From the NCBI RefSeq assembly GCF_003018115.1, contig NZ_CP027457.1: DNA of 64,000 nucleotides; one strand, given 5' to 3'. Under the pieces are notes generated by a model. It made no database searches, had not been told where the DNA came from, and was given only the letters and a program-made list of their open reading frames with translations. Source of the DNA: Escherichia coli (GTDB lineage: Bacteria > Pseudomonadota > Gammaproteobacteria > Enterobacterales > Enterobacteriaceae). The position numbers and the translations under genes were made by a program. Positions 12,378 to 12,485 of the stretch are shown here, in pieces. Position 1 is the first letter of the stretch. Every line of letters begins with the position of its first letter.

Positions 12378-12485
12378 ACGTCGCATCAGGCGCTGTTTGT
12401 CGGATGCGGCGTGAACGCCTTATCCGACCTACGGTTCGGGTTTGTAGTCCTGATAAGACGCGGCAGCGTCGCATCAGGCAATGAA
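12378..12485. repeat. REP/BIME palindromic repeats between cpsB and cpsG
   Basis: cgtcgcatcaggc occurs twice in inverted arrangement around gccttatccgacctacggttc; the same motifs recur at 16908..16990. Confidence 0.65.

Follow-up and report, generated by a model that had tools for sequence, protein, structure and literature searches.

REP/BIME repeats in the three long intergenic gaps of the Escherichia coli colanic-acid operon

Introduction

The colanic-acid genes of Escherichia coli form an otherwise tightly packed operon interrupted by three long gaps, which raises the question of what occupies these gaps and whether the occupants act on the operon or are simply carried by it. REP/BIME elements, short palindromic repeats found between genes, have been known since the 1980s. 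At this locus, 34-36-bp REPs have been described in wcaK-wzxC, cpsG-cpsB and wcaA-wzc, and also in hisI-wzz and yeeZ-hisL, with many indels involving REPs, the wcaA-wzc REP retained in all strains of that study, and a recombination role around the O-antigen locus offered as speculation (Iguchi et al. 2011, PMC3158064). With REPs reported at exactly these gaps, the finding is already known, both in kind and at the locus; its significance as a discovery is small, the presence and indel polymorphism of REPs in the three gaps having been published in 2011.

Gene context of the gaps

In the window, a stretch of 64,000 nucleotides, the colanic-acid genes wzc to wcaM occupy 18-20951 of the + strand (K-12 MG1655 alignment and open reading frame list), followed by galF, the O-antigen cluster with its JUMPstart element, and the his operon. 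The gene names given in a first-pass annotation of the same DNA agree with annotated E. coli matches and with the K-12 alignment, and the 501 bases around the cpsB-cpsG repeats are 100% identical to complete E. coli genomes, between annotated cpsB and cpsG. Three junctions stand out by length:

Gap 1, wzc-wcaA: 1887-2063, 177 nt
Gap 2, cpsB-cpsG: 12378-12569, 192 nt
Gap 3, wzxC-wcaK: 16870-17048, 179 nt

The stop codons of wzc and cpsB lie at 1884-1886 and 12375-12377. From wzc to wcaM the next-largest junction is cpsG-wcaJ at 54 nt, with all others at or below that length, so that the description of the three as the only long non-coding gaps of the operon is right over this range. The cpsG-wcaJ junction of the window (13941-13994) is repeat-free. 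The start of cpsG falls at ATG 12570 by alignment to the K-12 annotation, in place of the TTG at 12522 in the mechanical open reading frame list, which lies inside an RNA motif; the true cpsB-cpsG gap is therefore 192 nt and not 144.

That motif is the algC RNA motif (Rfam RF02929; 12516-12565, + strand), which lies directly upstream of the cpsG start with a score of 78.2 bits (gathering score 33.8) and recurs ahead of cpsG in loci of Salmonella, Enterobacter cloacae, Citrobacter koseri and Kluyvera. It forms the conserved portion of the cpsB-cpsG gap and the REP array the variable portion. The REP arrays are matched by no Rfam family, the sole match within the three gaps being the algC motif downstream of the gap-2 array. 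The other Rfam matches in the window (22278-22316, 42576-42699, 45439-45513, 57582-57654, 59990-60062 and 61811-61883) are the JUMPstart ahead of the O-antigen genes, the His leader, the sRNA STnc240 and three equal-scoring tRNA genes.

REP units in the gaps

Units of the y class were compared with the published REP consensus, GCCGGATGCGGCGTGAACGCCTTATCCGGCCTACGA; those of the z class were called against the 36-nt form GCCTGATGCGACGCTGGCGCGTCTTATCAGGCCTAC. A unit is given as + where the GCC...CTAC consensus is read on the + strand. The three gaps contain:

1898-1933, + strand, gap 1: REP unit of 36 nt, GTCGGATGCGATGCTGACGCATCTTATCCGACCTAC, with CTAC at the 3' end; missing from K-12
1939-1951, - strand, gap 1: y half-unit, GCCGGATGCGGCG, partner arm missing; missing from K-12
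1967-2000, - strand, gap 1: y REP, 1 mismatch to the consensus; + strand reads GTAGGCCGGATAAGGCGCTCACGCCGCATCCGGC; present in K-12 too
12379-12391, - strand, gap 2: z half-unit; + strand reads CGTCGCATCAGGC
12399-12432, + strand, gap 2: y REP, GTCGGATGCGGCGTGAACGCCTTATCCGACCTAC; 2 mismatches to the consensus, compensatory; missing from K-12
12433-12443, gap 2: linker of 11 nt between the CTAC and GTAG ends, without IHF consensus site
12444-12479, - strand, gap 2: z REP of 36 nt, 2 mismatches to the z form; + strand reads GTAGTCCTGATAAGACGCGGCAGCGTCGCATCAGGC
16898-16932, + strand, gap 3: degenerate y REP, GCCGGGTGCAGCGTAAAACGCCTTATCCATCCTAC; 6 edits from the consensus
16933-16951, gap 3: linker of 19 nt, GGTTCTGTGCTCGGGACCT, without IHF site; kept between the tandem copies of other strains
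16952-16987, - strand, gap 3: z REP of 36 nt, an exact match to the z form; + strand reads GTAGGCCTGATAAGACGCGCCAGCGTCGCATCAGGC

The unit at 1898-1933 is a hybrid, with a y-like foot bearing a compensatory T...A variant, a z-like length, and 7 mismatches to the z form; the K-12 copy of the degenerate unit at 16898-16932 is nearer to the consensus than the window copy. In gap 2 a 13-nt direct repeat (CGTCGCATCAGGC) bounds a unit of 88 nt, its left copy being the half z REP at 12379-12391 and its right copy the last 13 nt of the z REP at 12444-12479. The intervals in which the first-pass annotation had placed the repeats (12378-12485, 16908-16990 and 1890-2010) all contain REP units, with boundaries slightly refined here.

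GTAG tags occur at 1967-1970, 12444-12447 and 16952-16955, and CTAC at 1930-1933, 12429-12432 and 16929-16932; an internal stem mismatch, AA opposite GC, is visible in the units (GCCTGAT-AA-GACG...CGTC-GC-ATCAGGC), all of which are extragenic, between annotated genes. Binding by TnpA-REP needs both a GTAG foot tag and a 2-nt stem mismatch (Ton-Hoang et al. 2012). The units exceed chance by a wide margin: allowing at most 1 mismatch, GCCKGATGCGRCG has 7 matches in the window against 0.43 expected (0 of 100 shuffles reached 7), and CTTATCMGRCCTAC has 5 against 0.02 expected, a count reached by no shuffle. These matches are confined to the three gaps with one exception at 35455, and a consensus scan of the 64-kb window found no full REP units outside the gaps. 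The sequence at the exception is a REP-like small palindrome in the hisI-wzz gap (GCCGGATGCGACAACAACATCGCATCCGC, 35455-35483) without the CTTATC...CTAC half, which comes just after a hairpin and T run (about 35414-35452).

Alignment of the three regions, which the first-pass annotation had named as a check, gives real similarity in every pair: the repeat finder links gap 2 to gap 3 over 39 nt (95%), gap 1 to gap 2 over 48 nt (88% complementarity) and gap 1 to gap 3 over 24 nt (83% complementarity). Beyond the window, 5,425 of 5,426 complete E. coli genomes carry the 36-nt z unit at 16952-16987, with a per-genome median of 11 near-exact places, and queries with the gaps return a median of 10-11 places per genome.

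Comparison with the consensus, with y units within 1-2 mismatches of GCCGGATGCGGCGTGAACGCCTTATCCGGCCTACGA apart from the degenerate 16898-16932, thus joins the GTAG/CTAC tag, the stem mismatch, the extragenic position, the genome-wide dispersal and the y/z pairs in bearing out the reading of the gaps as REP/BIME-bearing: the elements are ordinary E. coli REPs, 34-36 nt long and imperfectly palindromic, belonging to the y and z classes. Their earlier description as near-identical units is loosely right, in that they fall into two classes, y and z, with roughly 80-100% identity to consensus; the string quoted for them, gcgtcgcatcaggc, is found in gaps 2 and 3 but not in gap 1, which has the y-class equivalent. 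Within the operon they sit only in junctions whose genes neither overlap nor nearly abut.

Pair organisation and strain variation

Gaps 2 and 3 each carry one y unit on the + strand (12399-12432; 16898-16932) followed, after a linker of 11 or 19 nt, by an inverted z unit (12444-12479; 16952-16987), and gap 1 carries a looser cluster of two and a half units with no regular pair. The IHF consensus WATCAANNNNTTR has 3 matches in the window, none of them inside any of the three gaps. BIME-1, a single y-z1 pair with a long conserved L linker bearing an IHF site, is ruled out by these short, IHF-free linkers. Short linkers, tandem amplification and copy number varying among strains are features of BIME-2 (Ton-Hoang et al. 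2012), and the cpsB-cpsG and wzxC-wcaK pairs show a BIME-2-type organisation. The z units would belong to the z2 rather than the z1 subtype, judging from short linker and tandem amplification.

Relative to the window, K-12 lacks the 88-nt y-z unit of cpsB-cpsG, has one additional unit of about 96 nt in wzxC-wcaK, and lacks one and a half units in wzc-wcaA. Among the 5,426 complete genomes, the window configuration is found over at least 80% of the query in 2,027 for gap 1, 2,666 for gap 2 and 2,134 for gap 3. The cpsB-cpsG gap measures 104, 192, 280 or 368 nt, in 88-nt steps corresponding to 0-3 units of 88 nt; the wzc-wcaA gap measures 92, 128 or 177 nt among the strains compared. At wzxC-wcaK the number of units ranges from zero to about six among E. 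coli strains, with an array period of 96-97 nt in the strains sampled (0 units in MSB1_9I, 1 in the window, 2 in K-12, 4 in strain 1438 and 5 in K56-43-un), and the gap spans 161 to 663 nt in a 10-strain panel, with the longest at 661-663 nt, and 72 nt, REP-free, in MSB1_9I. One strain has at this junction a y unit with only about the last 11 nt of a z unit, and E. coli BLR(DE3) has no REP there, a BoxC repeat standing in place of the BIME (L005 101-261). Between strains the arrays expand and contract by whole units of about 88-97 nt.

The wcaD-wcaE junction, 10 nt long in the window and the other panel strains, carries an insert of about 70 nt in E. coli strain 2/0 (L092 5891-5970), which may be an ERIC/IRU-like repeat fragment (...GGGTGAGCGAGGAAAACCAACGCACATGCAGCTTGAAGTATGACGGGTAT).

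Recombination

Gain and loss of units within arrays lends partial substance to the first-pass suggestion that the repeats are recombination sites. The wider proposal, that the REP gaps are preferred homologous-recombination junctions for the exchange of colanic-acid or O-antigen segments, starts from the report that similarity shifts at wcaK-wzxC and hisI-wzz fall together with some of the REP-containing indels (Iguchi et al. 2011, PMC3158064), and from the higher divergence between window and K-12 past wzxC-wcaK. Ten E. coli clusters were mapped onto window coordinates, a small panel of low power. Divergence across wcaK-wcaM is indeed higher in 45 of 45 pairs, but it rises near 18 kb, inside wcaK, and not at the gap; being present in all pairs, the rise describes a regional gradient towards the O-antigen locus and marks no specific junction. 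Of 15 pair-specific divergence change-points, none came as close as 300 bp to a gap, where about 0.5 per gap would be expected, an absence of enrichment to be read with the low power of the ten-strain panel. Matches that seem to break exactly at the cpsB stop codon come from strains with extra units (2-3 units in all), and a homology breakpoint there was rejected. A role for the gaps as preferred junctions of segment exchange is, on these observations, highly improbable.

Nucleotide diversity among the ten E. coli strains climbs from about 2.5% to 4-5.4% from roughly 18 kb toward galF and the O-antigen locus (window about 17500-21000).

RNA folding and transcription signals

Published accounts treat the cluster as one long operon read from the wza promoter with JUMPstart-RfaH antitermination, and as a single long transcript it would have each array transcribed and folded. 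Folding of the transcribed strand, another check named in the first-pass annotation, gives minimum free energies of -60.7, -56.3 and -62.9 kcal/mol for gaps 1, 2 and 3, far better than shuffled controls (z-scores -5.3, -6.0 and -4.3); the predicted folds include pairing across neighbouring REP units.

With a strong GC-rich hairpin in every gap, the arrays might be taken for intrinsic (Rho-independent) terminators dividing the cluster into several transcription units, each with a promoter of its own. A + strand scan of the three gaps contradicts this, finding no terminator-like site, no U tract after the hairpins and no sigma-70-like promoter, so the hairpins are neither intrinsic terminators nor restart points; the description of the cluster as a single RfaH-dependent operon from the wza promoter speaks against the same reading, which is almost certainly wrong. 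A Rho-dependent attenuator would be expected to have unstructured RNA, rich in C and poor in G, near the pause hairpin. Measured downstream of the arrays, (C-G)/length is 0.11, -0.06 and 0.08, at the 92nd, 36th and 85th percentiles of the operon background, a C>G skew too mild to form a clear Rho-loading signature.

In the literature on the colanic operon, a stem-loop transcriptional attenuator is stated to lie directly after wzc (Lacour et al. cited in that context), and Klebsiella cps clusters have a stem-loop at the corresponding post-wzc position. Published REP work indicates that REPs measurably alter the expression of neighbouring genes where tested. A 2026 preprint (Harris et al.) stresses that the effects are context-dependent and reports that short fragments of 2-4 hairpins were not Rho-sensitive and that a model REP had no role in chromosome compaction or long-range contacts. 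REPs less than 16 nt past a stop codon lower translation of the upstream gene, as given in a paper summarising that work (Liang, Rudd and Deutscher 2015); with stop codon-to-REP spacers of 11 nt (wzc), 1 nt (cpsB) and 28 nt (wzxC), the first two arrays fall within this distance and the third outside it.

The same junctions in other genera

Anchoring a scan on WcaI yielded 80 loci from about 30 enterobacterial genera, in which junctions of at least 100 nt occur at wzc-wcaA (36 of 64 loci), cpsB-cpsG (55/74), cpsG-wcaJ (31/73) and wzxC-wcaK (14/72), and rarely (1-9 loci each) at wcaE-wcaF, wcaF-gmd, wcaJ-wzxC and wcaI-cpsB. Expansion to at least 100 nt was never seen in the 80 loci at wcaD-wcaE, at wcaL-wcaM, or at overlapping or 2-nt junctions. 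The shortest junctions, found in many genera, measure 14-25 nt.

REP-type palindromes occupy these junctions in Citrobacter. REPs in other genera were counted with a stricter GTAG-foot pattern, a looser half-site pattern having given too many 'E. coli-type REPs' in their gap 2. In Enterobacter, Kluyvera, Lelliottia, Pluralibacter, Buttiauxella, Superficieibacter and Pseudenterobacter, wzc-wcaA and wzxC-wcaK carry BoxC/PIT/TMECO repeats, a family identified via the literature (BoxC-bearing gaps in loci L061, L070, L041, L019, L085, L048 and L060). These repeats (CCCTCACCCTAACCCTCTCCCC...GGGGAGAGGG...GGGGTGAGGG), found at wzc-wcaA, cpsG-wcaJ and wzxC-wcaK, often form tandem arrays of up to about 350 nt. 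Expansion of cpsG-wcaJ by BoxC-type repeats in 26 of 73 loci of other genera makes that junction a fourth site of repeated insertion. The three gaps of the window contain no BoxC. Over all loci, the six variable junction classes, 2.1% of 1.54 Mb, contain 36 of 42 REP feet and 347 of 366 BoxC cores. The variable junctions are either the sole insertion-tolerant sites or places where structured elements are favoured, and recurrent occupancy by unrelated families fits selection or mere insertion tolerance alike.

One locus (L044), titled Chryseobacterium sp. 18061, has an enterobacterial-type colanic cluster with the same gene order and a WcaI 82% identical; the assembly is probably mislabelled or contaminated.

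Punctuation or passengers

The ordinary REPs of the gaps, with their BIME-2-type pairs, probably act as mRNA punctuation, the functional steps being argued from REP biology. The REP family would have spread and amplified through the REP-associated Y1 transposase TnpA-REP and through recombination between repeated units. Transcribed within the operon mRNA, the arrays would fold into very stable hairpins lacking a U tract, whose most likely consequence would be a local 'punctuation' of the 24-kb message: the hairpins would stop 3'-to-5' exonucleases and so protect the upstream segment, and would cause a partial, probably Rho-assisted, attenuation of read-through, limited by RfaH loaded at the JUMPstart/ops site of the operon. 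The outcome would be an upstream-biased expression of four blocks, wza-wzc, wcaA-cpsB, cpsG-wzxC and wcaK-wcaM. Arrays beginning less than 15 nt after the stop codon (wzc, cpsB) may in addition reduce translation of the upstream gene via ribosome stalling, and variation in unit copy number could tune these effects strain by strain. An effect on mRNA stability, as first suggested for these repeats, or on attenuation would agree with the published REP work and with the attenuator placed right after wzc in the literature. Because REPs are absent in some E. coli strains and in many genera, any such effect is modulatory and not essential; the full cpsB-cpsG units missing from K-12 and the 72-nt REP-free wzxC-wcaK junction of MSB1_9I count against a functional role.

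These absences, together with copy numbers from 0 to about 6 among E. coli strains, are also what would be seen if the REP/BIMEs, and BoxC elsewhere, were selfish or drifting repeats tolerated wherever they are harmless, accumulating in the colanic operon only at junctions without overlapping or nearly abutting genes and with no selected effect on expression of the cluster. Such wide copy-number variation is as expected under weak or no selection; many genera do with junctions as short as 14-25 nt, overlapping and 2-nt junctions are never expanded, as purifying selection against insertion predicts, and the degenerate unit 16898-16932 and the half-units 1939-1951 and 12379-12391 look like decay products. 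Set against this are the filling of the same few junctions by unrelated repeat families in different genera, the attenuator function that the literature gives to the wzc-proximal stem-loop, the measurable changes in neighbour expression wherever REPs have been tested, and mRNA hairpins predicted at -56 to -63 kcal/mol, which would be unlikely to have no effect, although none of these points demonstrates selection. That the repeats are neutral passengers is a possibility to be taken seriously, if a doubtful one.

A further proposal places the function in the DNA, the BIME-2 arrays acting mainly as places where gyrase binds and cleaves, or as topological insulators, and relieving supercoiling from the strongly induced 24-kb operon. 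Gyrase cleavage in vivo has been reported for the BIME-2 class (Espeli and Boccard 1997, as cited in other papers), REPs have been characterised both as topological insulators and as sites bound by gyrase, Pol I and IHF, and the window arrays are of BIME-2 type. The arrays are, however, dispensable and variable in copy number, the model REP of the 2026 preprint had no role in chromosome compaction or long-range contacts, and the same junctions are filled in other genera by BoxC, for which no report of gyrase binding was found; a mainly DNA-level role is improbable.

A broader reading would extend beyond E. coli. The few overlap-free colanic junctions of Enterobacteriaceae would be selected punctuation points that convergently recruit whichever stable palindromic repeat the host carries, a tentative generalisation that is on present evidence unlikely. 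The recruits may be REP/BIME in Escherichia and Citrobacter and BoxC arrays in Enterobacter, Kluyvera, Lelliottia, Buttiauxella and others; the repeats may set the expression ratios of export, sugar-nucleotide/glycosyltransferase, initiation/flippase and late-modification blocks; and tandem copy number (0 to about 6 units in E. coli) may be a heritable, fast-evolving expression dial.

In practical terms the arrays show where one natural module of the operon ends and the next begins, and their variation in length from strain to strain could tune block-wise expression of the colanic-acid genes. The filling of the same junctions by REP or BoxC across genera is a modest new lead, and these junctions are a natural setting in which to ask if palindromic repeats within operons are regulators under selection or parasites that are tolerated.

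Comparison with known systems

The closest counterparts are the y and z REPs of E. coli themselves, which share with the window elements their length, the GTAG/CTAC foot, the AA/GC mismatch, an extragenic position and hundreds of dispersed copies; there is no essential difference, the window adding a hybrid (1898-1933), a degenerate unit (16898-16932) and two half-units. BIME-2 of the Gilson/Bachellier classification is likewise built of inverse y/z units with a short IHF-free linker, amplified in tandem with conserved copies per locus; the window differs in having just one full pair per gap, and wzc-wcaA is better called an atypical cluster.

BoxC/PIT/TMECO repeats resemble the REP arrays in occupying the same operon junctions (also in E. 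coli BLR(DE3)) and in being GC-rich, palindromic and often tandem, but they are an unrelated sequence family (CCCTCTCCC...GGGAGAGGG...GGGTGAGGG) with no GTAG tag.

REP325 of the yjdMN operon (Harris et al. 2026 preprint) and the malE-malF and hisJ-hisQ REPs are alike in placing an array between co-transcribed tandem genes, and a dual action of upstream mRNA protection and partial downstream attenuation would be expected to be common to them and the colanic arrays. REP325 is an array of 12 hairpins, whereas the colanic arrays have 2-3, a size that was not Rho-sensitive in the Harris study. The stem-loop of group 1 capsule and Klebsiella cps clusters, in Klebsiella described as terminator-like and not a REP, is unlike the window hairpins, which are REPs without a U tract; the two are alike in position, each standing in an RfaH-dependent operon at the boundary between wza-wzb-wzc export genes and glycosyltransferases.
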